In this document: piece by piece, positions 5,875-29,093 of the stretch | Layout of the letters: the number at the start of each line of letters is the position of its first letter | Numbering within the stretch: the stretch's first letter is position 1 | Assembly (NCBI GenBank): GCA_017625395.1 | Contig: JAGALD010000018.1 | Coordinates: forward strand, 1-53,725 | DNA: 53,725 nucleotides | Source of the DNA: Bacilli bacterium | GTDB taxonomy: Bacteria > Bacillota_I > Bacilli_A > RF39 > UBA660 | Direction: 5' to 3' | Notes under the pieces: generated by a model | Database searches by the model: none | Seen by the model: only the letters and a program-made list of their open reading frames with translations | What the model was told of the DNA's origin: nothing | Translations under genes and position numbers: made by a program

Positions 5875-6633
5875 ATGTCGGTTTTTAAAATTGAAAAAAC
5901 AAAAGATTTTACAGTTATGAGCAATTATCATTTAAGAGATAAAAATTTAAGTTTAAAAGCAAAAGGATTATTGTCATTTATGTTAAGTTTACCTGAAGAC
6001 TGGGATTATTCATTAATGGGTTTGTGTGCTATTTGTAAAGAAAGTAGAGATGCAATAAGGTCAACTTTAAAAGAACTTCAAAAATATGGTTATCTTCAAA
6101 TAGAGAAAGTTCGTGGAGATAAAGGTTATTTTGAATACAATTATTTGATATATGAAAAACCACATTCAATAGAAAAAGAAATAAATAATCCAGATATGGA
6201 AAATCCACACCTGGATAATCCAAGTTTGGAAGAACACCCACAAATAAATACTAATAAACAAAATACTAATAACAAAATTGATAAAGATGATAAAACCATA
6301 TCATCTTTTTTTCTTGCAGAAGAACATAATATTTTAACATTGGAATTAATTGATAGGGGATATATAAATGAGAATGATACTCAAATCTTTTATTATGATG
6401 ATTTATTTAAAAAGTTATTAGAAGAAGATAATTCATATAAAGATTTATTGCAAATTATACACTATATAATTCCAAGAGTAAAAGCAAGAGATTTTAAAGA
6501 TGAAGATGGTAATCCTATTCAAAATAAATTTGGTTATTTTAAAAATGCCATTATATCAAATATTCAGAGACTTGATATTGATATTGGAGAATTATGGGAT
6601 AATGAAGGAATATTTGATGATTTAGAAAGATAA
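5875..6633 (+). CDS. Phage/ICE-type HTH replication initiator
   Basis: FTVMSNYHLRDKNLSLKAKGLLS.MLSLPEDW N-terminus; NPxxE linker repeats; ends DDLER. Confidence 0.7.
   Translation: MSVFKIEKTKDFTVMSNYHLRDKNLSLKAKGLLSFMLSLPEDWDYSLMGLCAICKESRDAIRSTLKELQKYGYLQIEKVRGDKGYFEYNYLIYEKPHSIEKEINNPDMENPHLDNPSLEEHPQINTNKQNTNNKIDKDDKTISSFFLAEEHNILTLELIDRGYINENDTQIFYYDDLFKKLLEEDNSYKDLLQIIHYIIPRVKARDFKDEDGNPIQNKFGYFKNAIISNIQRLDIDIGELWDNEGIFDDLER
6187..6231. repeat. Three 15-bp iteron-like repeats AATCCA-N4-TGGAW inside the initiator gene
   Basis: aatccagatatggaa / aatccacacctggat / aatccaagtttggaa, followed by an A-rich tract. Confidence 0.6.
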
Positions 6634-6660
6634 AAAACATTAGCTTGTTTGCTAATGTTT
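6634..6660. terminator. Hairpin between convergent genes, probably bidirectional terminator
   Basis: aaacattagc-ttgttt-gctaatgttt. Confidence 0.7.
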
Positions 6661-6720
6661 ACTACTATATCAAGAAAGTAGGGTACTGCTAATTTTACTA
6701 CTAATACTACTTAAATACTA

Positions 6721-7221
6721 CTAATTTTTTTTAGGATTAGTTAGACAATAATAAGTTGTTGCGTGTCTTAATATTATCCATGTAATTACTTGATCCATAT
6801 TTTTAGGACTTATTAAAGAACTAATACAATAATCCTTTAAAAAGTTTAATTGTATTGGTAATTGAATACTTCTTTCGTTTGCACCGATTACTTTTTGAAC
6901 TAAATCATCAGCAACCAAGTCTCCTTCAGAAACAATACAATCATCTTGTTCATCATCTTCAAAATCTGCAAAGAAGTCAGTTATATCATCAACTTCTCTT
7001 GCAATTTCTTTGAATTTTTCGTTTGTATAAATTGGTTTTAATAATTCAAGATATTTATTAAGCAAATTTTCTAATACAATATCTTTTTCATTGTCAGGTA
7101 ATCCTTTTAAGTCTTTTATAAGACCATTTAATTCATAATGGTATTCTATACCTCTAATTTTTTTTATTTTGTTTTCCATGTTTTCATGGATAGATACTAC
7201 ATAGTCATTAATATTTTTCAT
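6721..7221 (-). CDS. Hypothetical acidic protein
   Basis: 166-aa ORF with AAGGAG RBS on the minus strand; the only convincing minus-strand gene. Confidence 0.7.
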   Translation of the reverse strand: MKNINDYVVSIHENMENKIKKIRGIEYHYELNGLIKDLKGLPDNEKDIVLENLLNKYLELLKPIYTNEKFKEIAREVDDITDFFADFEDDEQDDCIVSEGDLVADDLVQKVIGANERSIQLPIQLNFLKDYCISSLISPKNMDQVITWIILRHATTYYCLTNPKKN

Positions 7222-7386
7222 TTTTAGCTCCTTTTCTTTTCTTAAAATAAAACCTACTTTCTAGCACTACCATTCGTCAATTATTTTCCTTATTACACAA
7301 TATAATGTAGATAACTTACTACATAGTTGGTATGGTTTAAAATTATTAAACTTATTACAATAGTAGTAAGTTATAGGAAGGATGTG

Positions 7387-7647
7387 ATGATTATTAAATA
7401 TAACTTACGAGCTCGTAAGATTTTAGCAAATAACATAATATTTTTCCGATTAGAAAATGAGTGGTCGCAAGAAGATTTTGCAGATAAACTTGGGACAACT
7501 CCTACTTATGTTTCGACACTTGAAAATGCTAAAAGAAATACGAGGATTGATTACATAGGTCACATAGCAGATACTCTTGGTGTTTCTATCGAACAATTAT
7601 TTAAAGAAAGACCAAAAGTTAAAAATCATCGAATACCTAGACGATAA
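7387..7647 (+). CDS. XRE HTH regulator resembling R-M controller (C) proteins
   Basis: WSQEDFADKLG...YVSTLENAKRN; start moved to follow the AGGAAGGA RBS. Confidence 0.8.
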   Translation: MIIKYNLRARKILANNIIFFRLENEWSQEDFADKLGTTPTYVSTLENAKRNTRIDYIGHIADTLGVSIEQLFKERPKVKNHRIPRR

Positions 7648-7781
7648 GAATATATAATTATTCTTTTTTTGTGCCATTTTTATTATAACACGAAAAAATT
7701 TATTTTGAATATTAGTTTGCGTTAAAATGTGGCTATTTTAAAATTGATTAGGTGTCATAATAGATATAGGTAGGTGAGAAT

Positions 7782-8090
7782 ATGGCTATAAATAGTTTTG
7801 AAACTTTACAAAATAAATTGTCAAGAGTCAATGTTGATGAAATGTATGCTACTATTTGTAGTAACATAAAGAAATATCGTTTAGAAAAATACAACGAATT
7901 CAAAAGCAAAAACTCACAAAGTACTATTAATCCTTACTCAACTGAGAATGTTGCTGCTCTTTTAGATTATAATCATAATCATTATAAAAGATTTGAAAGT
8001 GCAAGTGATAGTACAAAAAGAATACCATTAAATAAGTTAGCAAAGATATCTATTATTTTAGATAAAACTATTGATGAACTAATGAAATAG
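7782..8090 (+). CDS. XRE-like HTH protein
   Basis: NIKKYR...STENVAALLD...YKRFE...LAKISIILD; AGGTGA RBS. Confidence 0.65.
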   Translation: MAINSFETLQNKLSRVNVDEMYATICSNIKKYRLEKYNEFKSKNSQSTINPYSTENVAALLDYNHNHYKRFESASDSTKRIPLNKLAKISIILDKTIDELMK

Positions 8091-8249
8091 TTGGTATTTG
8101 ATTATTTATTTACTTATGAAAGATAGAAAAATGAGTGTAGCTATCTTTTTATTTTGCATTTAAAAGGGAAAAAATCCCACTTTGTAAAGAAAAATGTCAA
8201 TTTTTGTAGTATAATAATTATGGATGTCTTTACAATAGGGAGTGATAAT

Positions 8250-9959
8250 ATGGAAACAACAAATCTTTCAAAAATTAAAAGAGAAAAAATGTTATACACT
8301 ATAAATGAAATAAAAAAGAATATAACTGACGAAGAAACTTTAAATAATTTATCTTTAATAGAAAATGAATTAACAAAAAAGAAATATGGTTTAGTTTGGG
8401 AAGAACATATAGAGAAAGTAGATATGGATTTGATAAATCAAATACCTACTTTTGAAGAAGTGAAAAATAAAGAAATATTTTCATCAAAAGATGAATGTTT
8501 TAATTTTTTAATAGAAGGAGATAATTTACATAGTTTATATTTATTAGAAAAGACACATAGTAAAAGAATTGATTTAATATATATAGATCCGCCATATAAC
8601 ACAGGTAACAAAGATTTTGTATATTCAGATGATGCAGTAGATCTTGAAGATGGATTTAGACACTCTAAATGGTTGTCTTTTATGGCAAATAGATTGAAAA
8701 TAGCTAGACAATTATTGAGTGAGCGTGGTGTTATATTTATTAGTATTGACGACAATGAACAATCACAATTAAAATTATTATGTGATGAAATATTTGGTAG
8801 TGAGCATTTTTTAGGATTAATAACAGTTGTTGGGAACCCACGAGGTAGAGATTATGGTGGAATTGCCAAAATGAATGATTATTTGATAGCATATTCTAAA
8901 ACTTCTAATTATGTTTTAAACAAAATAGAAGATGAAGAACATAAATTCAAAACAATTGATGAATATGGTGGTTTTGAATTAAGAGAATTAAGAAATCGTA
9001 ATATTAAGTTTAATGATAAAAATCGACCAAATTTATGTTATCCATTTTATGTTAATCCAAATAATAAAGATGAACATGGCTTATTAGAAATATCTTTAGA
9101 ACCACATGAGGGATTTATTGAAGTAATGCCTGCAATGTCTCAGGGTATACAAACGGTATGGAGATGGGGAAAGGAAAAATCTCTAAAAAATCTTAATATT
9201 AACATTAAAGGTAAACCAATGAAAGAAAAAAATCGATACATGATAGTAGAAAAATATCGTGACGAAAAAGTTATGCCAAGAAGCGTATGGTGGGATAAAA
9301 ACACTAATACCGAGAAAGGAACACTTTTATTAAAAGAAATACTTGGTGATAAAAGTTTTGATTATCCTAAACCAGTAGAGTTAATTCAAAGAATATGTGA
9401 AATGGGTACAGATAAAGAAAGCATTGTTTTAGATTTTTTTGCAGGTTCTGGAACAACTGGTCATGCAGTCATGGAATTAAATAAAAAAGACGGTGGTAAT
9501 AGAAAATTTATTTTGTGTACAAATAATGAAAATAATATTTGTGAAAATGTAACATATAGAAGATTAAATAATATAATAACTGGTTATGAAAACTCTAAAA
9601 AAGAACATATAAAAGGATATAATAATATAAATTTAAAATATTATAAGACATCATGTATTCCTAAAGTAAATGATGATAATAATAATCTAAAAGAAAATTT
9701 AATGAAGAATATAGTTAATTTAATTCAATTAGAAAACGGAATTAAAGTTGATAATTCTACAATTTGTGTATTTTTAGATGAAGAAGAATTAGATAAATTT
9801 TCATTATGTAAGGATAAATTAGATAATTGTCAAAAGATTTATATTTCATCAGATATATTATTAACTTCAACAGAAGAAAAAATATTTGAGGAAAATAATA
9901 TTAAAGTATATGTTATTCCTGAATATTATTTTGCAGATGAGATTATGGAGGTAGCATAA
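8250..9959 (+). CDS. mod: Type III R-M methyltransferase (Mod)
   Basis: YGLVWEEH, IEGDNL, YIDPPYN, HSKWLSFM, PKPVEL, DFFAGSGTTG; start refined by GGGAGTGA RBS. Confidence 0.92.
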   Translation: METTNLSKIKREKMLYTINEIKKNITDEETLNNLSLIENELTKKKYGLVWEEHIEKVDMDLINQIPTFEEVKNKEIFSSKDECFNFLIEGDNLHSLYLLEKTHSKRIDLIYIDPPYNTGNKDFVYSDDAVDLEDGFRHSKWLSFMANRLKIARQLLSERGVIFISIDDNEQSQLKLLCDEIFGSEHFLGLITVVGNPRGRDYGGIAKMNDYLIAYSKTSNYVLNKIEDEEHKFKTIDEYGGFELRELRNRNIKFNDKNRPNLCYPFYVNPNNKDEHGLLEISLEPHEGFIEVMPAMSQGIQTVWRWGKEKSLKNLNINIKGKPMKEKNRYMIVEKYRDEKVMPRSVWWDKNTNTEKGTLLLKEILGDKSFDYPKPVELIQRICEMGTDKESIVLDFFAGSGTTGHAVMELNKKDGGNRKFILCTNNENNICENVTYRRLNNIITGYENSKKEHIKGYNNINLKYYKTSCIPKVNDDNNNLKENLMKNIVNLIQLENGIKVDNSTICVFLDEEELDKFSLCKDKLDNCQKIYISSDILLTSTEEKIFEENNIKVYVIPEYYFADEIMEVA

Positions 9960-12151
9960 TGCAAGGTATCAAATTAAAAGAATTCCAAATTGATGCAGTA
10001 AACAAATTACTAGATGCTACATCTGTAGGAAATAAAAAAGAAGTATTAGTCCAAGCTCCAACAGGAAGTGGAAAAACAATTATATTGTTATCATATATTG
10101 AAGAATTCTTAAAAGAAGATAAAAAAACAATATTTGTATGGTTAACCCCTGGTAAGGGAGATTTAGAAGAACAAAGTAGAGATAAAATGTTAAGATATTT
10201 ACCGACATTAGAATCTAAAAATATTCAGGATGTTTTATTACAAGGGTTTGATAGTAAAGATACAGCATTTATCAATTGGGAAACAATTACAAAAAAAGGT
10301 AATACAGCATTGAAAGATGCAGAACGAAAGAATTTATATGAAAGAGTAACTGAAGCTCACAATAAAGGTTATGAATTTATTGTAATTGTAGATGAAGAAC
10401 ATTTGAATAAAACAATAAAAGCTGAGGCAATAATTGAATATATGAACCCTAAATATATTGTTAGAGTTAGTGCCACTACAAAAGTTAATAAAGAAGCAGA
10501 ATATATAGAAATTGATGAGTTAAGTGTAATAAATGAAGGATTAATTACTCGTGCTTTATACATAAATGAAAATGTATCTAATCAAGATGTTTTATCAAAC
10601 GAACACGAGTATCTTTTAGAACTTGCTATTAATAAAAGAAAGACAATCAAAGAAGAATACATAAATAAAAATATACAAGTTAATCCATTAATTATTATTC
10701 AAGTGCCAAGCAAATCCGATGATTTAATATTGCAAATAGAAACTATATTAAATGAAAAAGGTTATTCATATGATAGAAACAATTTAGCAATATGGTTAGC
10801 AGATAGAAAAGAAAATATTGATAATATAGAAAATAATGAATCTCATCAAGCAATATTAATAATGAAACAAGCAATATCTACTGGATGGGATTGTCCAAGA
10901 GCAAAAATTCTAGTTAAACTTCGTGATAATATGAGTGAAGATTTTGAAACTCAAACCATTGGTAGAATTAGAAGAATGCCACAAGCAAAACACTATGACA
11001 ATGTATTGCTAGATAATTGTTATCTTTATACCTTTGATGAAAAATATGAAGAAACTATAAAACAAGAATTAGGAAATAATGCCAAAGATACAAAGGTTAT
11101 ATTTTTAAAAAATGAATTTAAAAGTCTATCTTTAAAGAAAATTAATTTTGATAGTAATTTTGATGGATTTGACGAAAGACAAACATTTAATATATTGCAT
11201 AAGTATTTTGTAGATAAATATAATTTAGGAACTTCAAAGAAAAATAATAAAACAAATTTGGAGGCAAATGGTTATAATTTCAAAAATACAATTGAAAGTA
11301 GTATTGTTCAAGGTAAGGTTGTACGATTAGATGAAATTCAAGATGCCGATCGTATTAAAGTTGAATCGATAGTTAATACAAATAAAAATGGTTTTGAATT
11401 AAGATATTCAATAAATATTATTTCATCAAGAATAGGTATGAGATATGATAGAACAAGATTAATGTTAGAAAGAATGTTTTTAAAAAGTAAATTATTCTCT
11501 AAAAAGTTTGTTGATTTAACTATTCCTGAATTTTATGCTTTTGTAATAAATAATGAAGAATTATTAAAACACGATTTTCAAGAAGCAGTATCTCAAAAAG
11601 CAAGACAAATGAAATTAAAACTTGAAGAAGTTAAAATAACTGATTGGAAAGTACCAGAGATGGATTATATAAAATATGATCCAAAGATGAAAGATACTCA
11701 AATTTATAATAAATCAATTTATATGAATTATCCTAATAGTACAATTAAATCAAAATCTGAGAGAATGTTTGAAAAGTATTGTGAAAATAGTGATAATATA
11801 AAATGGTTTTACAAAAATGGAGAATCAGCAGAATCATATTTTTCAATAGTATATGTAGATGCAGTTAACAAAAAATGGCATTTCTATCCTGATTTTATTG
11901 TATGTGATAAGAATAATAAAATTTGGATAATAGAAACAAAAGGTGGAGAGAGTACATCTGGAGAATCTAAAAATATTGATATGAAAGTAGAAAATAAATT
12001 TGAAGCTTTGAAGCAATATTCTAAAGAGTATAATGTCAATTGGGGATTTGTAAGAGATTATGATAAAAACGAATCATTATATTTATGTAATACTGAATAT
12101 ACAGAAGATATGGAAAATGATAATTGGATTAATCTTGATGAAGTATTTTAA
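9959..12151 (+). CDS. res: Type III R-M restriction subunit (Res)
   Basis: APTGSGKT, DEEH, GWDCP, QTIGRIRR; C-terminal PDF..IETK nuclease; 1-nt overlap with mod. Confidence 0.92.
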   Translation: MQGIKLKEFQIDAVNKLLDATSVGNKKEVLVQAPTGSGKTIILLSYIEEFLKEDKKTIFVWLTPGKGDLEEQSRDKMLRYLPTLESKNIQDVLLQGFDSKDTAFINWETITKKGNTALKDAERKNLYERVTEAHNKGYEFIVIVDEEHLNKTIKAEAIIEYMNPKYIVRVSATTKVNKEAEYIEIDELSVINEGLITRALYINENVSNQDVLSNEHEYLLELAINKRKTIKEEYINKNIQVNPLIIIQVPSKSDDLILQIETILNEKGYSYDRNNLAIWLADRKENIDNIENNESHQAILIMKQAISTGWDCPRAKILVKLRDNMSEDFETQTIGRIRRMPQAKHYDNVLLDNCYLYTFDEKYEETIKQELGNNAKDTKVIFLKNEFKSLSLKKINFDSNFDGFDERQTFNILHKYFVDKYNLGTSKKNNKTNLEANGYNFKNTIESSIVQGKVVRLDEIQDADRIKVESIVNTNKNGFELRYSINIISSRIGMRYDRTRLMLERMFLKSKLFSKKFVDLTIPEFYAFVINNEELLKHDFQEAVSQKARQMKLKLEEVKITDWKVPEMDYIKYDPKMKDTQIYNKSIYMNYPNSTIKSKSERMFEKYCENSDNIKWFYKNGESAESYFSIVYVDAVNKKWHFYPDFIVCDKNNKIWIIETKGGESTSGESKNIDMKVENKFEALKQYSKEYNVNWGFVRDYDKNESLYLCNTEYTEDMENDNWINLDEVF

Positions 12152-12156
12152 ATGTT

Positions 12157-12183
12157 AAACAGGTTTATATAACCTGTTTTTTA
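12157..12183 (+). terminator. Terminator of mod-res
   Basis: aaacaggtt-tatat-aacctgtttttt. Confidence 0.8.
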
Positions 12184-12212
12184 TTGAAAAAAATGTCGAA
12201 CTTTGTTATACT
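12184..12212 (+). promoter_or_regulatory. SigA-type promoter
   Basis: TTGAAA-17 bp-TATACT with extended TG. Confidence 0.65.
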
Positions 12213-12217
12213 TTAAT

Positions 12218-12317
12218 AGTAGCAAACGCTACATTAAACCATTTTACTTTGCCGACATCAATCCTTCGATGTTGCAAACTTTTATAATAGTTGCTAGTAC
12301 AGGACTATTATTTTTTT
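12218..12317 (+). ncRNA. Candidate ~100-nt small RNA
   Basis: Lies between the promoter above and a terminator (ataatagt..actattat-T7); two internal hairpins; no RBS or ORF. Confidence 0.5.
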
Positions 12318-12510
12318 GTAAGTTTACATTTTTCTTATATTTAATTTTAGACAAGAAGTTCCAATTAATTTAAAAAAATGTTATAATAAATATAGATAAA
12401 TAGCAGTACATTATCTTTTTTAGGTGTGTACTGCTTTTATTTTTTGTGAAATTAATTTTAGTATTTGTATGTGAAGTATATGCAGTAAAGTAGTAAGAAG
12501 GGAGCAGAAA

Positions 12511-13163: not shown

Positions 13164-13180
13164 ATAATGCTCTCTTTTTG
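13142..13180 (+). terminator. Terminator just upstream of the ArpU-like gene
   Basis: aagagag..ttattc-tgtat-gaataa..ctctcttttt. Confidence 0.65.
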
Positions 13181-13199
13181 TTTTCTAGGAGGGTTTTAT

Positions 13200-17283: not shown

Positions 17284-17906
17284 TAAAAGATACTTATTCA
17301 TTGTAATAGGTATCTTTTTAATTCTTGTGGGAATTTTTGTTATTGGATATAGAGAATATTCAAATAATAAGAATAAATTAGTAGAACAAGAAAAGATAGA
17401 ATTATTCTTTGAAGAAGAAGTGAATGATCCGATTGAAGAACCAAAACAGGAAGAAAAACAAGAAGAACCTCCAAAACAAGTAGAACCAAAGAAGGAAATA
17501 AATTATGTAGCAATATTAGAAATACCAAAAATTAATTTAAAAAAAGGATTAGTTGATAAGAATAGTAAGGACAATAATGTAGATAAAAACATATATACCT
17601 TAAAAGAGTCGACTTTTCCAAATGATGAAAATAATAGTCATATTATTTTAGCAAGCCATTCAGGGAATAGTTATATTTCTTTTTTTAAAAATTTTAAAAA
17701 AATTAAGTTTAGGAGATAAGGTTAATCTTTACTATCAAAATACTAAATATGAATACGAGATAAAAAAGAAATATGAAATAGAAAAAACAGGAACTATGAC
17801 ATTAAATCAAACTGATACATCAGATATAACATTAGTTACCTGTATAAGTGGTACAAATAAACAACTAGTATTTATTGCACAATTAGTAAATGAAAATTCT
17901 TACTAG
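17252..17906 (+). pseudogene. Sortase split by a +1 frameshift near 17692-17702
   Basis: Frame 1 has the TM, LEIPKINL and ILASHSG; the +1 frame continues LSLGDKV...TLVTC...LVFIA to TAG 17906. Confidence 0.8.
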
Positions 17907-17916
17907 AAAGGATTAT

Positions 17917-18288
17917 ATGAAAAAGATAGCAATTTATGAGAGTTATAAAACTGAGAAAGAATATTCACTATTAAATATTGAACAAATTTATAATGTGAAA
18001 AATGGGGAATATCTTTATTATGTTGATGAAATAAAATCAAGATTAGATAAAAATCGTCCTAATTTGGAAAGATTAAAGAAAGATATAGAGTCTGGAAAGA
18101 TAGAGCAAATAATAATTAAAAGTTTGCAACAAATATCAAGGGATACATTTTACAATTTAGATTTTATTTCTTTTGTGGAAGAAAATAATTGTAAAATTAT
18201 TTGTCTTGATGGAAGTGATGTTCATCAATATAAATATATTACTGAAGGAATAATAGAAAGACAGAATAGGGAGGAATTAGAAAGATGA
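17917..18288 (+). CDS. Stand-alone resolvase catalytic-domain homolog, degenerate
   Basis: MKKIAIY, YVDE, RPNLERLKKDIESGKIEQIIIKSLQQISRD; no YxRxS, no DNA-binding domain; ends EELER. Confidence 0.65.
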   Translation: MKKIAIYESYKTEKEYSLLNIEQIYNVKNGEYLYYVDEIKSRLDKNRPNLERLKKDIESGKIEQIIIKSLQQISRDTFYNLDFISFVEENNCKIICLDGSDVHQYKYITEGIIERQNREELER

Positions 18289-18683
18289 ATGAAGAAAGAG
18301 AAATGAAGAATTCTATTAATAAATTTGAATTAGAAGGAAATGTAGGAAATATTAGAGATATTTATACAAATAAAAATGGTAAATCAAGTTTAAGATTTGA
18401 TTTAGGACAAAACAATAATGGAAATACACAATTTGTTCCAATTGTAATTAAAGGTGCTTTAGTTGATACATATGGAAAAGAAATTGAAAAAGGCAACTGG
18501 ATTTCAGTTAAAGGGAGAATTAGTGCGTTTTCAAAAGATGTAGAAAAAGATGGTAAAACATTTAAAGAAAAATCAGTTGAAATATTAGGTTTTGAAATAA
18601 CTGATAGAACAAATAATAAAATATATACTTCTGATGGTCAAATTCAAGATATTTCAAATTCTAAAGATGAAATGGAAAGATAG
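18285..18683 (+). CDS. ssb: Single-stranded DNA-binding protein (OB fold)
   Basis: NKFELEGNV...TQFVPIV...KGNWISVKGRI; ends KDEMER instead of DDDIPF. Confidence 0.75.
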   Translation: MNEEREMKNSINKFELEGNVGNIRDIYTNKNGKSSLRFDLGQNNNGNTQFVPIVIKGALVDTYGKEIEKGNWISVKGRISAFSKDVEKDGKTFKEKSVEILGFEITDRTNNKIYTSDGQIQDISNSKDEMER

Positions 18684-18685: not shown

Positions 18686-19093
18686 ATGTCCTATAATGAT
18701 TTGATAGCTGATTATATTATAAAACAGGGTATAGAGTTAACATCAGAATTTAATTACACAATTAGTTTAGATGATTTAGAAAAAGATTTTGACAAAGAAC
18801 TTTTTACTTATGTAAAAAATAATATGGATGATATATTCAATTCAATATCTAGTGATGAAAGAGTAGCAGAAGTAATATTAACTGACAATAGTTTTGATAT
18901 GGTTTATTATTGGAGTTATTGTTTAGATGAAAATGAAAAACTGGTATTAGAAATAGCAAACTCTGAAAATATAGAATTAGAATATGAAGAAGTCGTAGAG
19001 TTAGGTATGAAACTTTGGAATTATGATAAAGATGAACGAGATAAATATGTTTTAGAACAAATAAAAGAAAGGAATGATGAACTTGAAAGATAG
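18686..19093 (+). CDS. Hypothetical acidic protein
   Basis: 135 aa, in operon; ends NDELER. Confidence 0.7.
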   Translation: MSYNDLIADYIIKQGIELTSEFNYTISLDDLEKDFDKELFTYVKNNMDDIFNSISSDERVAEVILTDNSFDMVYYWSYCLDENEKLVLEIANSENIELEYEEVVELGMKLWNYDKDERDKYVLEQIKERNDELER

Positions 19094-19748
19094 TTTAGTA
19101 AAAGGACAAGCATTCATTGGAATGGATGATGAAAAATATTATTTTTTAGGACTAGATTATGATGAACAAATATTATTTACTAATTTAGATTTATGGACTG
19201 ATAAAGAACAAAAATATATGGAAAAAAGTAATTTATTTATTAAAGAAATATTAAATGAAAAGTCTGAATTAATTGAAAATAGTACATGGTATTATCAATC
19301 AAAAAAAGAATTAGAAAGTTCAACAACTGAAGAAAAAATAAAAAGATGTTTAGATATAATTAAAAATTCTAATACATCAGATTTTGAATTACGACCTATA
19401 GATGTAGGTCCATTGGTTCGTGGTCAAGCATATAGTAAAAAAATGAACCAATATTATGAAGTAGTAGGGTTTATCGTTGATAATGATATTTATTTAGATG
19501 GTAAACTTGAAACAAATCAAAAAGGATTCTTTGCTATATATCATTCAAATTGTGATGAAAGTGTTCCGTTAATTTTTGAAAGACATTTTAGTGATAGAGA
19601 TAATGATTTTAATGGTAAACATTTTGTGGCTGGGAACAATGATAGAGTTGATATTCAAGATATAATTTTACCAAAAGAATTGGTAAATAATTCTATGAAT
19701 AGTTTTTTAAAAGATAGAATAGAAAAAAATGTGGATATGTCAAAATAA
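19074..19748 (+). CDS. Hypothetical protein
   Basis: 224 aa; weak internal duplication LVKGQA / LVRGQA. Confidence 0.7.
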   Translation: MMNLKDSLVKGQAFIGMDDEKYYFLGLDYDEQILFTNLDLWTDKEQKYMEKSNLFIKEILNEKSELIENSTWYYQSKKELESSTTEEKIKRCLDIIKNSNTSDFELRPIDVGPLVRGQAYSKKMNQYYEVVGFIVDNDIYLDGKLETNQKGFFAIYHSNCDESVPLIFERHFSDRDNDFNGKHFVAGNNDRVDIQDIILPKELVNNSMNSFLKDRIEKNVDMSK

Positions 19749-21592: not shown

Positions 21593-21907
21593 ATGTATAT
21601 AACAGTGAAATCAATAAAAAGAAATTTAGGTTTTAAAGGTATTGAAATACCAGATATTATTATAGCTTTACCAATTATTATAATATTTATTGTTTTATTT
21701 GCTTTTACACCATTAAAAATACCAGCATTAATATTTTTGATGATTGGAGTTTTTTGTTTATTGCCAATTAATGTTAGTAAAAAGAATAGAATGTATAAAG
21801 TATTAATATTAATTTTTCAATATATATTTAGAACTAAAATATTTGTTTATCAAAAAGATAACATTAAGAAAGAGAAGGTGATTGAAGTAAATGAAAACAA
21901 AGAGTAA
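21593..21907 (+). CDS. VirB3/PrgI-like small membrane protein
   Basis: Two TMs, overlaps the virB4 start. Confidence 0.6.
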   Translation: MYITVKSIKRNLGFKGIEIPDIIIALPIIIIFIVLFAFTPLKIPALIFLMIGVFCLLPINVSKKNRMYKVLILIFQYIFRTKIFVYQKDNIKKEKVIEVNENKE

Positions 21908-24398
21908 AGAGCAAGTTGATAAGAAAAAAATAAAAGAAACAAAACTCCTTCAAAAATTTATAAAAAGAAAATCTAAAAAAGATAAGCAATATATTACAAA
22001 GAAGGTATTAATAAATAAATTCAAGAATTCTCAAAGTTTTACAAATGCTAAAGATGTAACTAACGAGGGACTATTAAATTTAAGGACTGGAGAAGTTGTT
22101 AGAATATATTCAGTAGATGCAATTGATTTATCACTAACATCTAATACCCAAAAAAATAATTTCTTTGCACAATTAAAATATTTATATCAAATAAAAGGGT
22201 TAAATTTAAGAATGTATAAACTAGATGATAAAATAGATTTGAATGTAAATAAAGATTATTATAAAGAACTAATGAATAAGTTTTCAGATGATGAAAATAA
22301 AATAAATTTTTTAGAAGAAAGATATTCAAGATTAGAAAGATTAGAAAGAGAAAATTTAACAACAACTAGTAGATATTATTTTGTAATCATATGTGATAAT
22401 GATAAAATTTTAGAACATATGACAGAAGAAATAGAAATGCAGTGTTATAATATGACACCGAGACTAAATATCCAAAAAATAACTAACAAATTAGAGATAT
22501 ATCAATTTTTAGTTAATTTATATTTATCTACTGCAAATATTGAGCAATTAATGTGGAGTGATTTAATTGAATTAATAACTCCTTTTTTTGTGCAAGAAAA
22601 TATGGGATATATGGATATTGATAGTGATGAAGTTCAAATAGTTACAATAAAAAAAATACCACCATTTATTGATGAACTATTTTTTGAAGAATTGTTTAAT
22701 GTTCCAGATGCAAGATGTTGTATCCATATTCAAGATACAATTCCAACTGATGAATTAGTTAGAAGATTAGATAGTAATTATGAATTTTTATTATCAGAAA
22801 GAACATCTACTAGAAAATTAAGTGATGCAACTCAAATGGATACCGAGAAAGAAAACTTTCAAGCTTTAATGACACAAATAAAAAATGGAGATGAAAAAAT
22901 AAAAGAAGTTGATTTTATTATTGTTATTAAAGGCACAAAAATTGAAAGAGAAGAAAAAATAAAAGAGTTAAGAAAAATTGCTGATGTATTTCAAATTAAA
23001 CTTGATGTTCCAAGAATGAGGCAATATGAAGGTTGGCAAGCATTTGATATAAACAAAAATGGTTTTGAAGACTATCATCAATATATGCCGACATTAACAT
23101 TAGCATCATCATTTCCATTAACTATTACTTCTTTTAATGATGAAACAGGTTATATGATGGGAACTGACATTCATACTGCTTTACCAATTATATTTGATAT
23201 GTTTCATAAAGATCCAACAAGACCATCATCAAATTTAGCAGTAATTGCTTCAACTGGTGGAGGTAAAAGTTTTACATTAAAGAAAATGATGATTAATGAA
23301 ATAAATCGTGGTAATAAAATTATTTGTTTTGATGCAGAAGGAGAATATAAAAAACTGGTTACACAAAACAAAGGAGAGTACATTGATTTATATTCATCTA
23401 GCGGTGGGATTATAAATCCATTACAAGTAAGATTTTTACCAAGTGATAGAGAAGAAAAAGAAGATGATGCAGTAGAAAAAATTAATTATGATGATTGTCC
23501 ACTAGCAAAGCATTTAGGTTCATTAGAAACATTTATCAAATGTGCTTTTGAAGAAATAAAAGAAAGTGAAGTTGTAGTATTACTTGATATGATTGAAAAA
23601 TTATATAAAAGATTTGGGATAACTAAACATACTAAAATATCTAGTTTAGAAAAATTAGAAAATAGTGATTATCCAATATTTTCGGATTTAATAGACTTCT
23701 TACCCGATTATAGAAATATGATTACTAATCCAGAACAATTAAAAATTGTAGATAAATTAGAAATATTGTTAGACAGATTTAAAGTTGGAACTGATGCAAT
23801 GTTATTTAATGGACACACAACTGTTAATCTTGATTCTAACTTAATCGGATTTAATGTAAAGGATTTATTGTATAGTAAAAACAAAAGAATTATTACAACT
23901 CAATTAGTAAATTTATTGACTTACTTAAATAATATAATTGTTAGTAATAAAATTATTAATGATAAAAAAGGTAATAAAAAAGAAATACAAAATATAGGAA
24001 TTGTTATTGATGAATTTCATTTGTATTTAAAAAATACTGATAGTGAAGTAATTTTAACATTCGAACAAATTGCAAGAAGAATAAGAAAATATCATGGAGC
24101 ATTTATGCCAGCTACTCAAAGCATACATGATTTTATTGGAGATGATGAATCAGTAAGAAGTGCAACTGCAATTTTTAATAATTGTCAGTATCAATTAGTT
24201 GGTATGCTTAAAGAAGATGATTTAACGACATACTTAAAATTATTTTATCAGAATCCACTTACTGATACTCAAAAAGAGTTCTTGATGAAAGCAGTAATGG
24301 GAGAATTTTTACTTACTATTAATTCAAAAAAAAGATTAAGACTAGCAGTAATGGCAACACCAATAGAAGTAGAATTAATGGGAGAGGAAGTTAAATAA
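21891..24398 (+). CDS. virB4: VirB4-family conjugation ATPase
   Basis: Walker A ASTGGGKS, FDAEGEY, INPL, Walker B IVIDEFH, RRIRKY, ATQS. Confidence 0.92.
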   Translation: MKTKSKEQVDKKKIKETKLLQKFIKRKSKKDKQYITKKVLINKFKNSQSFTNAKDVTNEGLLNLRTGEVVRIYSVDAIDLSLTSNTQKNNFFAQLKYLYQIKGLNLRMYKLDDKIDLNVNKDYYKELMNKFSDDENKINFLEERYSRLERLERENLTTTSRYYFVIICDNDKILEHMTEEIEMQCYNMTPRLNIQKITNKLEIYQFLVNLYLSTANIEQLMWSDLIELITPFFVQENMGYMDIDSDEVQIVTIKKIPPFIDELFFEELFNVPDARCCIHIQDTIPTDELVRRLDSNYEFLLSERTSTRKLSDATQMDTEKENFQALMTQIKNGDEKIKEVDFIIVIKGTKIEREEKIKELRKIADVFQIKLDVPRMRQYEGWQAFDINKNGFEDYHQYMPTLTLASSFPLTITSFNDETGYMMGTDIHTALPIIFDMFHKDPTRPSSNLAVIASTGGGKSFTLKKMMINEINRGNKIICFDAEGEYKKLVTQNKGEYIDLYSSSGGIINPLQVRFLPSDREEKEDDAVEKINYDDCPLAKHLGSLETFIKCAFEEIKESEVVVLLDMIEKLYKRFGITKHTKISSLEKLENSDYPIFSDLIDFLPDYRNMITNPEQLKIVDKLEILLDRFKVGTDAMLFNGHTTVNLDSNLIGFNVKDLLYSKNKRIITTQLVNLLTYLNNIIVSNKIINDKKGNKKEIQNIGIVIDEFHLYLKNTDSEVILTFEQIARRIRKYHGAFMPATQSIHDFIGDDESVRSATAIFNNCQYQLVGMLKEDDLTTYLKLFYQNPLTDTQKEFLMKAVMGEFLLTINSKKRLRLAVMATPIEVELMGEEVK

Positions 24399-24583
24399 TG
24401 ACAAAAGTAGTTAGTGATAAAGTTATTAGAAATAAATTTAAGAAAACATATAAAGAAGAATTTGAAGATGCAAATGAATCATTTATGGATTTCTTATTGG
24501 ATTTAATTCCAATAGAAATAATTAAAGAAATATTGTTAAAAGGTAATGACTATTACTATAAAGTATTTAATAAATATAAATAA
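24398..24583 (+). CDS. Small hypothetical protein
   Basis: 61 aa, coupled to both neighbours by TAATG overlaps. Confidence 0.6.
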   Translation: MTKVVSDKVIRNKFKKTYKEEFEDANESFMDFLLDLIPIEIIKEILLKGNDYYYKVFNKYK

Positions 24584-25512
24584 TGAAAAATAAAAAAAAG
24601 AATAATTTAATTCTCAAAATAATAGGTAGTAGTTCAATTTTAACAATAGCATCAATTATGGTTATTCTAATATGTATTCTTATGATATTTGATTTTTTCG
24701 GTGCTGAACTTACAAAAGAAAAAATATCAAATAATGCAGAATATGCAGACTTATATAAACAAGCATCAAATAAATATATAAAAAATGGATATGTTCCATT
24801 ACAAAGATTATTATATTTTTATTTAGAAGATCAAAGTCTAACTTTTGATACACTTTATCAACTAAATCAAAATCCAACTGGAAAAATTGAAAAAGAAATA
24901 TCAGTAGTATGTGAAGATGAGAGAGTAAAAAATATGGGTGCTTGTACTGCATCTAATATAGAAAGTAATAAAGAATATTTGTCTGTGCCGACACCATTAT
25001 TTAATTTTCCATTAAAGACTAGTAGTTATACAATTACTAGTTTTTATAATGAACAAAGAATTATTTATGGAGAACAAAATGTACATAGTGGGTGGGATTT
25101 AGCTACATCAGCCCAAACGCCTTTGTATTCAGTTTGCAATGGCACAGTACACAAAGTAACATATACTCAAAATGAAAATATACCATATGACCAAAGTGGA
25201 AATAAAACAGGAAACATAATAGTTTTAAAGTGTGATCAAGATTATGCAGAAACTTATTATGTAACATATGCTCACTTATATCCTAATAGTGCAAAGGTCA
25301 AAGTTGGAGATTCTGTTAGCCATTGGACTGAGATAGCAAGTGTAGGAACAACTGGTCATAGTACAGGAAATCACTTGCATTATCAAGTAGCTGATGCTAA
25401 TTGGAATTTAATAGATGGTATGCAACTAATAGATTTTAATTCAGTTACTGATTATTCAAATCAACTAGAGTATAAACCACCACAGGAAGCATTACCATTA
25501 CCATATAAATAG
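24583..25512 (+). CDS. M23 peptidase, conjugative cell-wall hydrolase
   Basis: N-terminal TM; HSGWD, YAHL, GTTGHSTGNHLH. Confidence 0.88.
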   Translation: MKNKKKNNLILKIIGSSSILTIASIMVILICILMIFDFFGAELTKEKISNNAEYADLYKQASNKYIKNGYVPLQRLLYFYLEDQSLTFDTLYQLNQNPTGKIEKEISVVCEDERVKNMGACTASNIESNKEYLSVPTPLFNFPLKTSSYTITSFYNEQRIIYGEQNVHSGWDLATSAQTPLYSVCNGTVHKVTYTQNENIPYDQSGNKTGNIIVLKCDQDYAETYYVTYAHLYPNSAKVKVGDSVSHWTEIASVGTTGHSTGNHLHYQVADANWNLIDGMQLIDFNSVTDYSNQLEYKPPQEALPLPYK

Positions 25513-25770
25513 TAAGGTAGCCACTAATAAAAATAAATGTAGTCATAAAAAACATTGATAGATAAAGAAAAAACAACAATGAGTAGCCACTTTTATATTA
25601 TAAAGTGGTCATTTTTGCAAGTGCAAAAATAGTAAGACATCATAAATTTACCCTGTAATTATAAGGGATAAATAAAATTATGGTGTCGTTCTTCTTATGC
25701 CCATTAAAAATATATAGTATTTTTAATTATAAAAAGTACTTATTTTTGATAAAAGTGGCTACCTTGTTAA
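25513..25770. other. Putative oriT region
   Basis: Non-coding, rich in inverted repeats, directly upstream of RHH-RHH-relaxase. Confidence 0.6.
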
Positions 25771-25788
25771 TTTAGAACAGGAGGAAAT

Positions 25789-26004
25789 ATGATTAAAGGT
25801 TTAATGAGAACAACAATACGAATTGATAATAATTTAAAAACAAGAATAGAATTATTAGCAGTAAAAAATAATATGAGTTTTAATAAAATGATTAATTATA
25901 TAATCAGTTTGGGTTATCAAACTTATATAGATAAATTTGATAAGTATTATGAAGAACAAGATAATAATATTAGAAAAGAGGTAAAAAATGAAAACAAAGA
26001 TTAA
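25789..26004 (+). CDS. Ribbon-helix-helix relaxosome accessory protein
   Basis: RTTIRIDNNLKTRIELLA...SFNKMINYII; AGGAGG RBS. Confidence 0.7.
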   Translation: MIKGLMRTTIRIDNNLKTRIELLAVKNNMSFNKMINYIISLGYQTYIDKFDKYYEEQDNNIRKEVKNENKD

Positions 26005-26143
26005 AAAAATTGCACAAGAAATAATAGGAAAAAAAGTTATAAAGGAAGAACCAAAGAAAGATGAAAATAAAAGTGAACCACTTTATTATTTTATAAAAAT
26101 AACTGATGATGAAGTTAAGTTAATTCCATTTAAACTTTTATAA
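25988..26143 (+). CDS. Small hypothetical protein, 51 aa, not in the ORF track
   Basis: GAGGT RBS; MKTKIKKIAQEIIGKK...LIPFKLL fills the gap between the RHH genes. Confidence 0.5.
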   Translation: MKTKIKKIAQEIIGKKVIKEEPKKDENKSEPLYYFIKITDDEVKLIPFKLL

Positions 26144-26149
26144 TAGTTT

Positions 26150-26482
26150 ATGAAAAAGATAACCGTAAGAGTAGATGATTACATTTACGATAGAATTAAA
26201 TTAGTGGCAAAAGAAAATCATATATCTGCCAATAAAGTAATTGGTAATATTTTAAAAAAAGTTGTAGAACAACCAAAAGAGATAAGTTATATAGAGGAAA
26301 TTCATAAGACTTTAATTAATATGGAAAATAAATTAATTAGTATATCAAAAAAACAAAAACTGCATTTTGATATATCATCATATCATTTTGCAAATCAAGG
26401 TTATCTATCAAATGCTGAACCTAGTGAAGATAAATGTTTAAATGAAATATTAAACAAAGATGTAAATAAGTTTAATGAGTAA
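26150..26482 (+). CDS. Second RHH relaxosome accessory protein
   Basis: KKITVRVDDYIYDRIKLVAKENHISANKVI; overlaps the relaxase start. Confidence 0.7.
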   Translation: MKKITVRVDDYIYDRIKLVAKENHISANKVIGNILKKVVEQPKEISYIEEIHKTLINMENKLISISKKQKLHFDISSYHFANQGYLSNAEPSEDKCLNEILNKDVNKFNE

Positions 26483-27842
26483 AAAAAGTCCAAATGTAGT
26501 TTTTGCTTGCAAATATTTATTGTCATTAAATAGTATTGATAATAAGTTTCAATCATTAGGTTATAAAGAAGATAGAACAAAAGATGTAGATGAAATGATT
26601 GATTATTTTTCAAATGTAAAAAAAAATGTAGTTGGTATGTTTGAATATTATATGGGACATACAAGAGGAGAAAATGTTAATCTTGTTTTAGAAAATGGTC
26701 AATATGCAAATAAAAAAGATATAAAAAAAATAAAAGAAGATTATAAAAAATATATTGAGTCATCTAATTTGTGGAAAGGAATAATTAGTTTTAAATCTGA
26801 TTATTTAAACTACAATATTTCAATAAAAGATTTAGAACAAAAGATGGCTAAAGAGATAATGCCACAATTTTTAAAATATTGTGGATTTAAAGATGTAAAA
26901 AAAATGAGTTATGTTTTTTCAGTTCATACAAATAAAAAGCATCCACATATACATTTAGCTTTCATAGAAAAACAACCCAATTATTTATATTGTGATAAGA
27001 AAGTAAATTATAGGAGACAGGGAAAAATAACAAAAGACGAGCAAAGATATTTAAAAAGATTAATCGAGTTATGTATTGAAAGAGAAAAAGTCTTTACTCC
27101 TTTGTTAAAGAGAACTAATGAAGATATTGATTATTTAAAATCATATTTTAATCCTAAAGAAAAAAACTTTATTCTTAAAGATATAAATGAAATAGAAATA
27201 GAAGAAAAAATTTTAAAGTTGGGTTGCAAATTAAAAGAATATAGAGAGTTAAATAATAATACATCATTAAAAATCAAATATAATTCGATTAAAAATAATG
27301 AATTGGGGAATGAAATAAAATCATTAACTAAAGAAATTAAATATTATTTGTTTAAAGATAGTGATTCGATTTTATATGCAAGTCAACATGACATTAATAA
27401 AGATTTAAAAAAAATAAATAGTTATTTTGATGAACTTAATGAAAATAACAACATAGAAGAATTAATACAAAAAAATAATATAGTAGAGAGAAAACAAAAC
27501 TATATTGATAGTTACATTTTTAATTCAATAGTAAATCATTCTTTATATAAATATAATAAAGTATATATGTATGTAAAAAATAAAAATCAATTAGATGTAA
27601 TTACTATTGAAGATTTAATACAAGAACTAGCATATCTAAATAATAATCATAACACAAGTGAAAGTGATAAAGAAAGAAGAAAGAAAGTATTAGATAATTA
27701 TTTTAAAGGAAATAGTAAGTCATCAAAATTTTATGCAAAAACTCAAATGGAAAAAGCATTAAAAAATATTAATTATGAAATGCAAAAATCAGCAGATAAG
27801 TTTAGCGAATTATTTAATTATGATAATAGCATTACAAAATGA
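26475..27842 (+). CDS. mobL: Relaxase, MobL family
   Basis: MIDYF, LWKGIISF, HTNKKHPHIHLAFIEKQP histidine triad. Confidence 0.85.
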   Translation: MSKKSPNVVFACKYLLSLNSIDNKFQSLGYKEDRTKDVDEMIDYFSNVKKNVVGMFEYYMGHTRGENVNLVLENGQYANKKDIKKIKEDYKKYIESSNLWKGIISFKSDYLNYNISIKDLEQKMAKEIMPQFLKYCGFKDVKKMSYVFSVHTNKKHPHIHLAFIEKQPNYLYCDKKVNYRRQGKITKDEQRYLKRLIELCIEREKVFTPLLKRTNEDIDYLKSYFNPKEKNFILKDINEIEIEEKILKLGCKLKEYRELNNNTSLKIKYNSIKNNELGNEIKSLTKEIKYYLFKDSDSILYASQHDINKDLKKINSYFDELNENNNIEELIQKNNIVERKQNYIDSYIFNSIVNHSLYKYNKVYMYVKNKNQLDVITIEDLIQELAYLNNNHNTSESDKERRKKVLDNYFKGNSKSSKFYAKTQMEKALKNINYEMQKSADKFSELFNYDNSITK

Positions 27843-27853
27843 TCGGAGGAAGT

Positions 27854-27991
27854 ATGTTAAAAATATTTATAATAGCAATGATAGTTATATGTTGTTTGTT
27901 TTTATATTCGGCATGTGTAGTATCAGGAAGAATATCTCGTGAGGAGGAACAACAAAGTTATGTTAAAGAAAATAAGAAAAGCATGGATTAA
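27854..27991 (+). CDS. Small membrane protein, 45 aa
   Basis: GGAGG RBS; MLKIFIIAMIVICCLFLYSACVVSGRISREEE. Confidence 0.55.
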   Translation: MLKIFIIAMIVICCLFLYSACVVSGRISREEEQQSYVKENKKSMD

Positions 27992-28112
27992 TTTTTGGGG
28001 AAATAGATATAGAATATATGAAAAAGATAAAGAAATATATAATGTATTAATTTACCATAAAAGAATGTATTTAACGAAAGTAGGTGAAAGAGATGAAGAA
28101 ATATCAAGTTGA
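27960..28112 (+). CDS. Small hypothetical protein, 50 aa
   Basis: GAGGAGG RBS; MLKKIRKAWINFWGNRYRIY...; overlaps both neighbours. Confidence 0.45.
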   Translation: MLKKIRKAWINFWGNRYRIYEKDKEIYNVLIYHKRMYLTKVGERDEEISS

Positions 28113-28458
28113 AGTTGTAGAAAAATTAAGTAGAGTAGTAGAAGTTGAAGCTGAAGATTATCAAACGGCATTAGAAATTGTTTCAACAAAATATGCTGAC
28201 TCTGAAATTGTTTTGGATTATAACGATTTAGAAACAACGGATTATCATGAATACCCATCACCAAAGATAAAAGATAATTTTGAAATAGTTTTAGAGTTTG
28301 ATAAAGACGAAAAAAATATAGTGATCAGTTGTGATGATTCAACAGGTGTAAATTATAATTGTGTAGATTATGAAGATTTAACTATAGCATTACAAGACTA
28401 TATTGATAACTATATTGAATATGAGAAAGAAAACGATAAAGATGATTTGGAAAGGTAG
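28093..28458 (+). CDS. DpnD/PcfM-like protein
   Basis: MKKYQVEVVEKLSRVVEVEAED...Y...EIVLD; ends DDLER. Confidence 0.75.
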   Translation: MKKYQVEVVEKLSRVVEVEAEDYQTALEIVSTKYADSEIVLDYNDLETTDYHEYPSPKIKDNFEIVLEFDKDEKNIVISCDDSTGVNYNCVDYEDLTIALQDYIDNYIEYEKENDKDDLER

Positions 28459-28465
28459 TGATAAA

Positions 28466-28738
28466 ATGGATTTTTCAAAATTGAATATAGAATTTTCTAA
28501 TATGCAAAATATGATTACAAAATACAATGAATTATTATTAGAAATAAAAAATAAAATTAAAAATAATTTCAAAGAAATAAGTAAATATGAAACTAAAATG
28601 AAAAATACAAAAAACAATTTAGAAAAAGAGTGTTATAAGATTTTAGTTATTTCGTTAAAAAATGAAACATTATTTTTAGAAAGTATTATAAAGGAAGAAG
28701 AAAAAAATGAATCAACCCCTACTAAAACAATACAATGA
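28466..28738 (+). CDS. Hypothetical coiled-coil protein
   Basis: In operon; start refined to the ATG after GAAAGG. Confidence 0.6.
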   Translation: MDFSKLNIEFSNMQNMITKYNELLLEIKNKIKNNFKEISKYETKMKNTKNNLEKECYKILVISLKNETLFLESIIKEEEKNESTPTKTIQ

Positions 28739-29093
28739 GAAAGAGATAGTTGAATTATTAAAAAATAATGTTCATTTAGTTTATGTAGATACTGGCTCTG
28801 AAGAAGTTGTAGCAAGATATGAAGATTTACCAGACATTATAGTTGATATAAATGATAAATTAGGATATGTTGTGGATTTGAAAGTTTATGATTATCAAAA
28901 TCCTTCATCAAATCCAATTCTTACGACTTTTGGTCCGTTTTTAAATAAATGTGATCCAAAAGTAAGAGAAGATATAATTGATAGATTAGTAAAGCTTCAA
29001 CAGGAAGAAGAATCTGTAAAAGACTATAAGGTTATAGATGAAGATATGTTAGAAGATGTCAGAAATTCATTAAATAATGAAATGGAAAGATAA
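28707..29093 (+). CDS. Hypothetical acidic protein
   Basis: 128 aa; ends NEMER. Confidence 0.7.
   Translation: MNQPLLKQYNEKEIVELLKNNVHLVYVDTGSEEVVARYEDLPDIIVDINDKLGYVVDLKVYDYQNPSSNPILTTFGPFLNKCDPKVREDIIDRLVKLQQEEESVKDYKVIDEDMLEDVRNSLNNEMER

Follow-up and report, generated by a model that had tools for sequence, protein, structure and literature searches.

According to the sections of PMC10025392 consulted, the signals by which type IV secretion systems (T4SSs) recognize proteins are C-terminal and either positively charged or hydrophobic, and there is no consensus signal. Translocation signals of the F plasmid are diverse, being 'C-terminal or internal' in the excerpt of PMC11288057. Whether the single-stranded DNA-binding proteins (SSBs) of Gram-positive plasmids act like the translocated F-plasmid SSB is unknown according to the part of PMC11137577 consulted. 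Here we describe a C-terminal tail, (D/E)(L/M)ER followed directly by the stop codon, on soluble proteins of an integrative conjugative element (ICE) of a Bacilli bacterium. The element occupies ~5.8 to 51 kb of a stretch of 53,725 nucleotides (contig JAGALD010000018.1 of assembly GCA_017625395.1), which is called the window below. The window is contig C82 of the 110-contig assembly, the genome has a size of 1.49 Mb and 26.7% GC, and the related contigs belong to metagenome-assembled genomes of gut Bacilli/'Tenericutes'. The motif is real, is selected as a peptide, is specific to ICEs, is absent from the channel proteins and changes in concert between clades that share a host. It is probably a shared docking peptide with one ICE-encoded reader.

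The Arg signal of the Agrobacterium VirB/VirD4 system (Vergunst et al. 2005, cited in the consulted part of PMC10025392) resembles the ICE tail in that it lies at the extreme C terminus of unrelated proteins. Arg matters in this signal, as it may in the ICE tail. The Agrobacterium signal is read by a VirD4-type coupling-protein system, and the ICE likewise encodes a VirD4-type type IV coupling protein. As summarized in that part of the source, however, it comprises several Arg over ~20 residues, whereas the ICE tail has one last Arg, a net-acidic stretch of five residues and a hydrophobic residue at position -3. Furthermore, the tail belongs to a conjugative element in a Gram-positive-type host. 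The E-block of the Legionella Dot/Icm system (same excerpt of PMC10025392) is alike in its Glu-rich C-terminal end, but it lies further from the end and lacks a fixed last residue, whereas the ICE tail has a fixed terminal Arg. Dot/Icm is a type IVB system with DotL/DotM adaptors, and no Dot/Icm family was found in Pfam scans of 52 window proteins, which did identify a coupling protein of the VirD4/TraG type. In RalF, a hydrophobic residue near -3 is said to matter.

The SSB of Escherichia coli ends in DDDIPF, a Pro-Phe-type hydrophobic end. This segment (SSB-Ct, the last ~9 residues; PMC7913777, consulted in part) is alike in having a flexible linker and a short acidic docking tip. The ICE tip, however, is common to many non-SSB proteins, and it ends in Arg in one clade of elements (clade A, to which the window belongs) and in M, L, I or V in a sister clade (clade B), whose tips, for example DDLDM, come close to the SSB-Ct pattern. 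The tail of F-like TraD, bound by TraM (PMC8406263, excerpt), is also a short C-terminal tail and forms a plasmid-specific link between relaxosome and coupling protein. In that excerpt the tail is on the coupling protein and a relaxosome protein reads it, whereas in the ICE the tails are on many accessory proteins. The ICE tail would be a further form of the known C-terminal T4SS signals. No description of such a tail was found in the consulted parts of the literature on T4SS signals, Gram-positive coupling proteins, SSB-Ct and terminal arginine, with supplements unopened.

The terminal peptide and its carriers

Six open reading frames (ORFs) of the window, all on the + strand, end in [DE][LM]ER and a stop codon. 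The replication initiator (5875..6633; 252 aa; HTH_36, with a PHROG replication-initiator/DnaD-like match) ends in FDDLER, its tail codons being 6619-6630. A fragment of a serine-recombinase catalytic domain (17890..18288; 132 aa; resolvase N-domain) ends in REELER, and its stop codon overlaps the start of the SSB gene (ATGA). The SSB itself (18285..18683; 132 aa) consists of an OB fold and a linker of variable length and ends in KDEMER. It is followed by an acidic protein (18686..19093; 135 aa; isoelectric point, pI, 4.05) that ends in NDELER and whose gene shares its final 20 nt with the beginning of the following one. A DpnD/PcfM-like protein (28084..28458; 124 aa; pI 4.08) ends in KDDLER, and a second acidic protein (28707..29093; 128 aa; pI 4.39), encoded directly upstream of virD4, ends in NNEMER. 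Weaker ends are found on a giant SNF2 helicase (41844..48164, + strand; 2106 aa), which has the degenerate tail GQELSQ, and on a 224-aa protein (19074..19748, + strand), which ends in NVDMSK. The other 50 + strand window ORFs listed lack the [DE][LM]ER end. A preliminary description of this DNA had reported the six tails and the two weaker ends. They are all present at exactly the positions it gave, and its names for the initiator, the SSB, the resolvase fragment, the DpnD/PcfM protein and the 'acidic' pair agree with the domain matches and isoelectric points.

In the entire genome, 6/1692 ORFs of at least 80 aa end in [DE][LM]ER, and all six are the ICE ORFs of the window. From position-specific C-terminal residue frequencies in 1304 chromosomal ORFs, 0.004 matches are expected among 56 ORFs (Poisson P ~6e-18). 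On the chromosome, 4/1304 ORFs (0.3%) end in ER and 5.4% end in R. The tail is thus far above background, and the earlier statement that no host, cargo or membrane protein carries it is borne out, the genome matches being restricted to soluble ICE proteins and the channel proteins being free of it. At the DNA level, GAWNTNGARAGRTRR is present 7 times where 0.14 copies would be expected; six occurrences are in-frame gene ends and one (45596) lies out of frame within the helicase gene. A repeated DNA module as the origin of the tails was ruled out: they are not copies of one module, because the 3' ends of the six genes are similar over only ~13 nt.

Related elements were recovered by VirB4 as 77 loci with 10-kb flanks. 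Clade A comprises 48 loci (VirB4 at least 65% identical) and clade B 29 loci (VirB4 ~53% identical). One to five [DE][LM]ER ORFs are present in 34/48 clade-A loci and in 0/29 clade-B loci. ER ends 148/1004 of the + strand ORFs in clade A, compared to 0/416 on the - strand. In a set of 105 non-redundant ER tails, in which the terminal Arg is present by definition, the consensus is D/E at -5 (71/105), E at -4 (84/105), M/L at -3 (67/105) and E at -2 (105/105). Arg is rarely swapped for Lys, and the tail is net acidic with its single Arg.

The number of carriers exceeds the six unrelated proteins counted at first. That count is right for the window, but it is an undercount for the clade, where at least nine or ten families have the tail. 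Among clade-A homologues the SSB ends in ER in 36/39, and in the SSB alignment the OB fold is conserved, the linker is variable and rich in indels, and the tip, E-x-E-R, is invariant. Such a combination of variable linker and invariant tip resembles a flexible tether and was counted for docking. The 135-aa acidic protein ends in ELER in 3/3 homologues; in most relatives an unrelated 168-aa protein replaces it at the same position, and 33/34 of these end in xER. The end is ER in 20/24 members of a 116-aa family and in 15/15 of a 75-aa family. In the 128-aa acidic family (n=22), 15 members end in ER, 5 in EMDR and 1 in EMEK. PcfM homologues end in ER in 4/10 cases and in EKEK in the other 6/10, and the recombinase fragment ends in ER in 15/30. 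Of 23 separately fetched initiator ORFs, 14 end in xER, 2 in YVR, and the other 7 are shortened or divergent. The 224-aa family (n=38) has a conserved end of its own (EMSK in 16, DMSK in 6), and this [DE]MSK end may be a weaker variant of the tag. The giant helicase had been described as having a weak end, which is true of the window copy with its ELSQ but not of the family, since xER is present in 33/53 related loci (EMER 21, ELER 8, EIER 2, VIER 1, NMER 1). The window copy and its near-identical relative, L149, are exceptions, and comparison with the orthologues indicates that the window's own helicase has lost the tail.

ER ends are absent (0) among the clade-A VirB4, VirD4 (0/23 homologues), relaxase, M23, pilin, VirB6-like 464-aa protein and adhesin families, and the sortase family has 2/37. 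The small acidic proteins received no name from NCBIfam or PHROGs, the 135-aa protein had no usable ESM Atlas match, and no close relative of the initiator was found among viral contigs.

Two further observations concern individual carriers. Serine recombinases have the catalytic motif YxRxSxxxQ, in place of which the fragment at 17890-18288 reads IAIYESYKTEKE. The fragment is probably catalytically dead, because the Arg and the catalytic Ser of the motif appear, by eye, to be replaced. In the clade-A locus L042, three families have 'slipped' tails (SSB DMERE, 116-aa ERGGK, 128-aa EEMEK), and the tag seems to be decaying in this element.

Peptide or nucleotide signal

The tail could in principle be a by-product of a nucleotide signal, GAAAGA or GAAAGG acting on the gene that follows as a Shine-Dalgarno or re-initiation signal. 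In many cases the tail indeed lies 5-12 nt upstream of an ATG, AT-rich elements over-use AGG as their terminal Arg codon, and after the SSB gene the arrangement GAAAGA-TAA-TT-ATG is highly conserved, GAAAGA resembling part of a ribosome-binding site. This explanation is nevertheless largely refuted and is very improbable. The position of the tail is fixed relative to the stop codon and not to the next start codon. The ER codons are downstream of the next gene's ATG at the 168-aa/135-aa position, abut the next start in the recombinase fragment (ATGA), lie 5 nt upstream of it in the SSB and 128-aa families, and 10-12 nt upstream in the PcfM, 116-aa and 75-aa families. The spacing thus runs from a 20-nt overlap to 12 nt upstream, with no fixed value. 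Furthermore, the tail is kept where no gene follows. In the window the initiator gene is followed, just 3' of its stop codon, by a hairpin shared by convergent genes (6635..6660) and a convergent ORF, the next + strand ORF beginning at 7327, so that the earlier remark that the initiator has no downstream same-strand gene is correct. Fourteen initiator orthologues keep xER before the hairpin, and most helicase orthologues keep it before non-coding DNA.

The codons point in the same direction. Synonymous tail codons are found in four initiator orthologues (GAG CGA) and in one helicase orthologue (GAG CGT). The hydrophobic residue at -3 is M (ATG) or L (CTT, TTA, TTG), so that hydrophobicity is kept through unrelated codons. 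Glu is encoded by GAA in 90% of tail and 89% of internal positions, and Arg by AGA in 82% and 78%, respectively. Replacements within tails are conservative (EMDR, EMEK, ELEK). In GC-richer ICEs of the CD1110 type, described below, all six Arg codons are used for the last residue at about internal frequencies, and chromosomal ORFs of the same genome lack the motif (4/1304 end in ER). Being locked to the stop codon, kept where no gene follows and written in synonymous codons, the tail is a peptide signal selected at the amino-acid level. The suggestion that it is more than a by-product of ribosome binding, and that conservation would be found at the amino-acid rather than the nucleotide level, has therefore stood up to analysis.

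One overlap is dual coding. At 19074-19093 the start of the 224-aa gene, ATGATGAACTTGAAAGATAG, is contained in the terminal codons of the acidic protein encoded upstream. Relatives form the ATG of the 224-aa gene from the -3 or the -5/-4 tail codon, the +1 frame reading M(N)LKD or MKD, and both reading frames are conserved.

Tails of sister clades and co-resident elements

Clade B has a different end, [DE][LIMFYV][DEG][MLIV], which is present on 75/645 of its + strand ORFs, 0/251 of its - strand ORFs and 3/1004 of the clade-A ORFs; ER ends only 4/645 of the clade-B + strand ORFs. The initiators, when aligned, end in DLER, FER or YER in clade A and in DLEL, DFEL, DYEL, EIDL, DLDI or DFGL in clade B. 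The SSBs end in EMER in clade A and in DLDM or EMEM in clade B, and the clade-B end is also found on a ParB-like protein and several small proteins. Between the clades the class of the last residue thus switches in several unrelated orthologous proteins at once, while the rest of the pattern is kept. On a smaller scale, a subclade of clade A (L002-L005, L028 and, in part, L025) has Q at -3 in up to three families per locus. Concerted shifts of this kind are what a common reader predicts. As a separate observation, two helicases that are ~87% identical to that of the window (L116 and L142) are clade-A-like but have an end of the clade-B type, DLEI/NLEI. L116 is in the same assembly as the clade-A locus L026, and these ends may result from tail swapping by recombination.

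Both clades are present in the genome of the window. Clade A is represented there by C82 and clade B by C108, where the ParB-like protein ends in AYDLDM, the initiator in EEDLEL and the SSB in EDDLDM, and where VirB4 is 53.5% identical to that of the window. The clades are also found together in two other assemblies (L018 with L074; L041 with L064). The host SSB, encoded between rpsF and rpsR, ends in ELPFY. Because clades A and B share one host genome, an ICE-encoded receptor is favoured as the reader and a host protein is unlikely. At least three further T4SS elements are present in this genome, on C36 (~46-82 kb), C43 (~8-39 kb) and C108 (1-16 kb), corresponding to loci L108-L112. Each has recurrent ends: xER on C36, [DE]YE[LIV]-type on C43 and DL[DE][ML] on C108. 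The VirB4 of C43 is 42% identical to that of the window, and 16/30 of the C43 ORFs end in M, L, I or V, many as [DE]YE[LIV], compared to a background of 20.7%.

These co-resident codes bear on a second alternative, in which the tail is a degron or anti-degron that times the lifetime of ICE proteins. Bacterial degrons typically have a C-terminal position and a free carboxylate, and a restriction of the tag to ICE proteins would fit. A single host protease, however, leaves four tail codes in one host unexplained. Moreover, the tag marks a functional class, DNA processing as opposed to the channel, and not regulators, and the window's Pfam matches contain no Clp, Lon or adaptor, the peptidases being M23, VanY, M73 and a weak S26. 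A stability tag is therefore improbable.

The element on C36 is an ICE of the CD1110/Tn1549 type, with DUF3801, DUF3848, DUF3991-Toprim, PrgI and ParA/ParB. The identity between its VirB4 and that of the window is 22%. Arg ends 9/37 of the C36 ORFs, compared to a background of 5.4%; eight of the nine are xER, with the codons AGA, AGG and CGA. In a sample of 80 CD1110-type loci, including cultured Eubacterium ramulus and Coprococcus catus, Arg ends 492/1669 + strand and 101/1313 - strand ORFs. The use of all six Arg codons mentioned above was found in the members with a GC content of at least 34%. Terminal Arg is present in the Toprim protein (46/47), a 289-aa protein encoded upstream of VirD4 (54/55), DUF3801/PcfB (41/66), the relaxase (27/62), ParB (6/6), ParA (2/2), the SNF2 helicase (6/6), DUF3848 (3/3) and a 251-aa protein (8/8). 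The corresponding counts are 1/76 for VirD4, 0/56 for VirB4, 0/68 for TrbC, and 0/64 and 0/43 for two proteins without a Pfam match. Around the T4SS of a cultured Cohnella plasmid, 8/17 annotated coding sequences end in Arg. In both ICE families, which are unrelated to each other, the terminal tag thus sets the DNA-processing proteins apart from those of the channel.

The candidate reader and the surrounding element

VirD4 is a known substrate receptor of T4SSs (PMC8406263, in the part consulted). According to the same part of that source, the F-type T4SS transfers ParA, ParB1, SSB, ParB2, PsiB and PsiA, a set that is like the tagged one, which comprises SSB, the replication initiator and the SNF2 helicase, plus ParB in sister elements. 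The VirD4-type coupling protein of the window (29096..31057, + strand; 653 aa; Pfam T4SS-DNA_transf, 2e-58) lacks the tail and is the candidate receptor, and a gene for a tagged protein always adjoins virD4. The C-terminal domain of this protein (residues 565-653; 30788..31057, + strand) is the part that has diverged most between clades A and B, with 18% identity compared to 64-68% in the ATPase core and 50% in the all-alpha domain. The model of this domain is confident (pLDDT 89) and has an alpha-beta-beta-alpha-beta-beta fold with a basic loop, KxxxKNRNS, which is nearly invariant in clade-A VirD4; the clade-B loop is non-basic and more hydrophobic. Fold searches with the domain returned generic two-layer alpha/beta and designed-protein matches only (best Foldseek E 3.5e-3). 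In VIA, a match to a designed protein (Z 9.1, root-mean-square deviation 2.4 A over 73 aligned residues) gave no functional clue. The model of full-length VirD4 is poor (mean pLDDT 58), and its fold matches are limited to Cag-beta and TrwB. Some single residues were also considered. The column of E580 is acidic in both groups of the Arg type but in none of the hydrophobic type; it was discarded as a charge-switch residue because of gaps and a one-residue shift in the local alignment. E317 and E593 were given no weight, being two of 64 clade-specific positions.

In the proposed mechanism, (D/E)-(D/E)-(L/M)-E-R would be a short peptide tag at the free C terminus of soluble DNA-processing and establishment proteins: the replication initiator, SSB, recombinase-domain protein, PcfM, several small acidic proteins and, among the relatives, also the giant SNF2 helicase. 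Each carrier would present the tag to one common ICE-encoded receptor, most likely the VirD4 coupling protein and possibly its fast-evolving C-terminal domain. Docking would bring the carriers to the transfer machine, probably for travel into the recipient with the DNA. We infer the single receptor, its identity with VirD4 and the outcome of transfer. The preliminary description had proposed a translocation tag for proteins delivered to the recipient, with a protease or partner-docking tag as the alternative, and this interpretation finds partial support here. That VirD4 in particular reads the tail for recruitment and probable co-transfer is, on this comparative evidence, about an even chance.

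A number of observations weigh against this mechanism. The Agrobacterium signal is rich in Arg, whereas the ICE tail is net acidic. The clade-A relaxase, an obligatory T4SS substrate, ends in ER in 0/36 cases and has a terminal K. The window helicase has no tail, and PcfM and recombinase-domain homologues are often without one, so that the tail is dispensable for some carriers. Fast divergence of C-terminal domains is common, hence weak evidence for VirD4. The CD1110-type VirD4 gave no reliable alignment with the window VirD4's C-terminal domain, and because of this one receptor site cannot explain both ICE families. At the nucleotide level, AT-rich members have an excess of terminal AGG (21% compared to 10% in clade A; 36% compared to 9% in CD1110-type loci of low GC) and a deficit of CGN. 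This bias argues for some ribosome-binding overlay, and some tails double as ribosome-binding sites, which leaves the motif itself unexplained. Lastly, the SSB, helicase, initiator and ParB fit a replication or relaxosome hub equally well.

The last point is the core of a third alternative, in which the tail is a docking tip for DNA replication or processing, like the SSB tip, and binds one partner without export. The partner could be the relaxase, a ribbon-helix-helix (RHH) accessory protein of the relaxosome or a polymerase, in the donor or in the new host. There are precedents: the helicase and the SSB of T7 share an acidic tail, and the C-terminal tail of F-plasmid TraD is read by the relaxosome protein TraM (excerpt of PMC8406263). 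The carriers here are mostly DNA-handling proteins, the ICE SSB is built in the classical way, with a flexible linker between its OB fold and a conserved tip, and the clade-B tips (DDLDM, DLDI), acidic with a hydrophobic last residue, resemble canonical SSB tips, the host SSB ending in ELPFY. A terminal Arg, however, does not fit the hydrophobic pocket that reads such tips. Several carriers are small and very acidic (pI 4.05-4.4) and have no DNA-handling domain, and a host hub is unlikely because the tails differ between ICEs within one host. On balance a hub without export is rather unlikely, and it would merge with docking on VirD4 if the hub were the relaxosome docked on that protein.

The remainder of the element comprises VirB4 (21891-24398), a MobA/VirD2 relaxase (26475-27842), a serine recombinase (49465-51045), a thioester/SpaA adhesin, a sortase, small acidic proteins, a T4SS pilin-like protein, an M23 hydrolase, two RHH-like proteins (25789-26004 and 26150-26482) and a cargo block. 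Close to the left end (8154-12151), an N6/N4 DNA methylase (601 aa) and a ResIII helicase (730 aa), whose genes overlap by one base (TAATG), form a type III-like restriction-modification cargo. At 28466-28738, after PcfM, a 90-aa ORF overlaps the start of the 128-aa acidic protein (28707-29093) by 32 nt, and its family has a conserved end, TKTV/EKSV, instead of the ER tag. At 39855-41794 lie a Y-family (ImpB/UmuC-type) polymerase and, after it and overlapping it, a 139-aa ORF without a known family, which ends in KDLE, the tag pattern minus one residue. Many related ICEs have a conserved box, AAAAAACTCTTGCAAAAT, after the giant helicase's stop codon (for example L124:4001-4040; ~48165-48210 in the window); this box could be a promoter, an operator or another cis site. 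The closest VirB4 relatives in the plasmid collection are ATPases of Spiroplasma ICEs with ~26% identity, so that the ICE family described here lacks a cultured model.

A terminal motif of four to five residues would make the choice of protein cargo by conjugative type IV systems directly testable by means of peptides and reporter fusions. The present analysis adds a concerted switch from R to a hydrophobic residue between sister clades and the occurrence of four codes in one genome. The motif would provide a rule for predicting from sequence the ICE proteins that are active in the recipient, and a way to study how cross-talk between co-resident elements is avoided. Tentatively, each conjugative lineage of gut Firmicutes might have a private C-terminal 'postcode' that is read by the fast-evolving C-terminal domain of its own coupling protein: (D/E)(L/M)ER here, (D/E)-hydrophobic-(D/E)-(M/L/I/V) in the sister clade and x-Arg in the CD1110 type. 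If this were true, an ICE that shares its cell with others could send out, along with its DNA, its own SSB, initiator, helicase and anti-defence proteins and not those of its neighbours, and the postcodes would provide orthogonal protein-export codes for Gram-positive conjugation.

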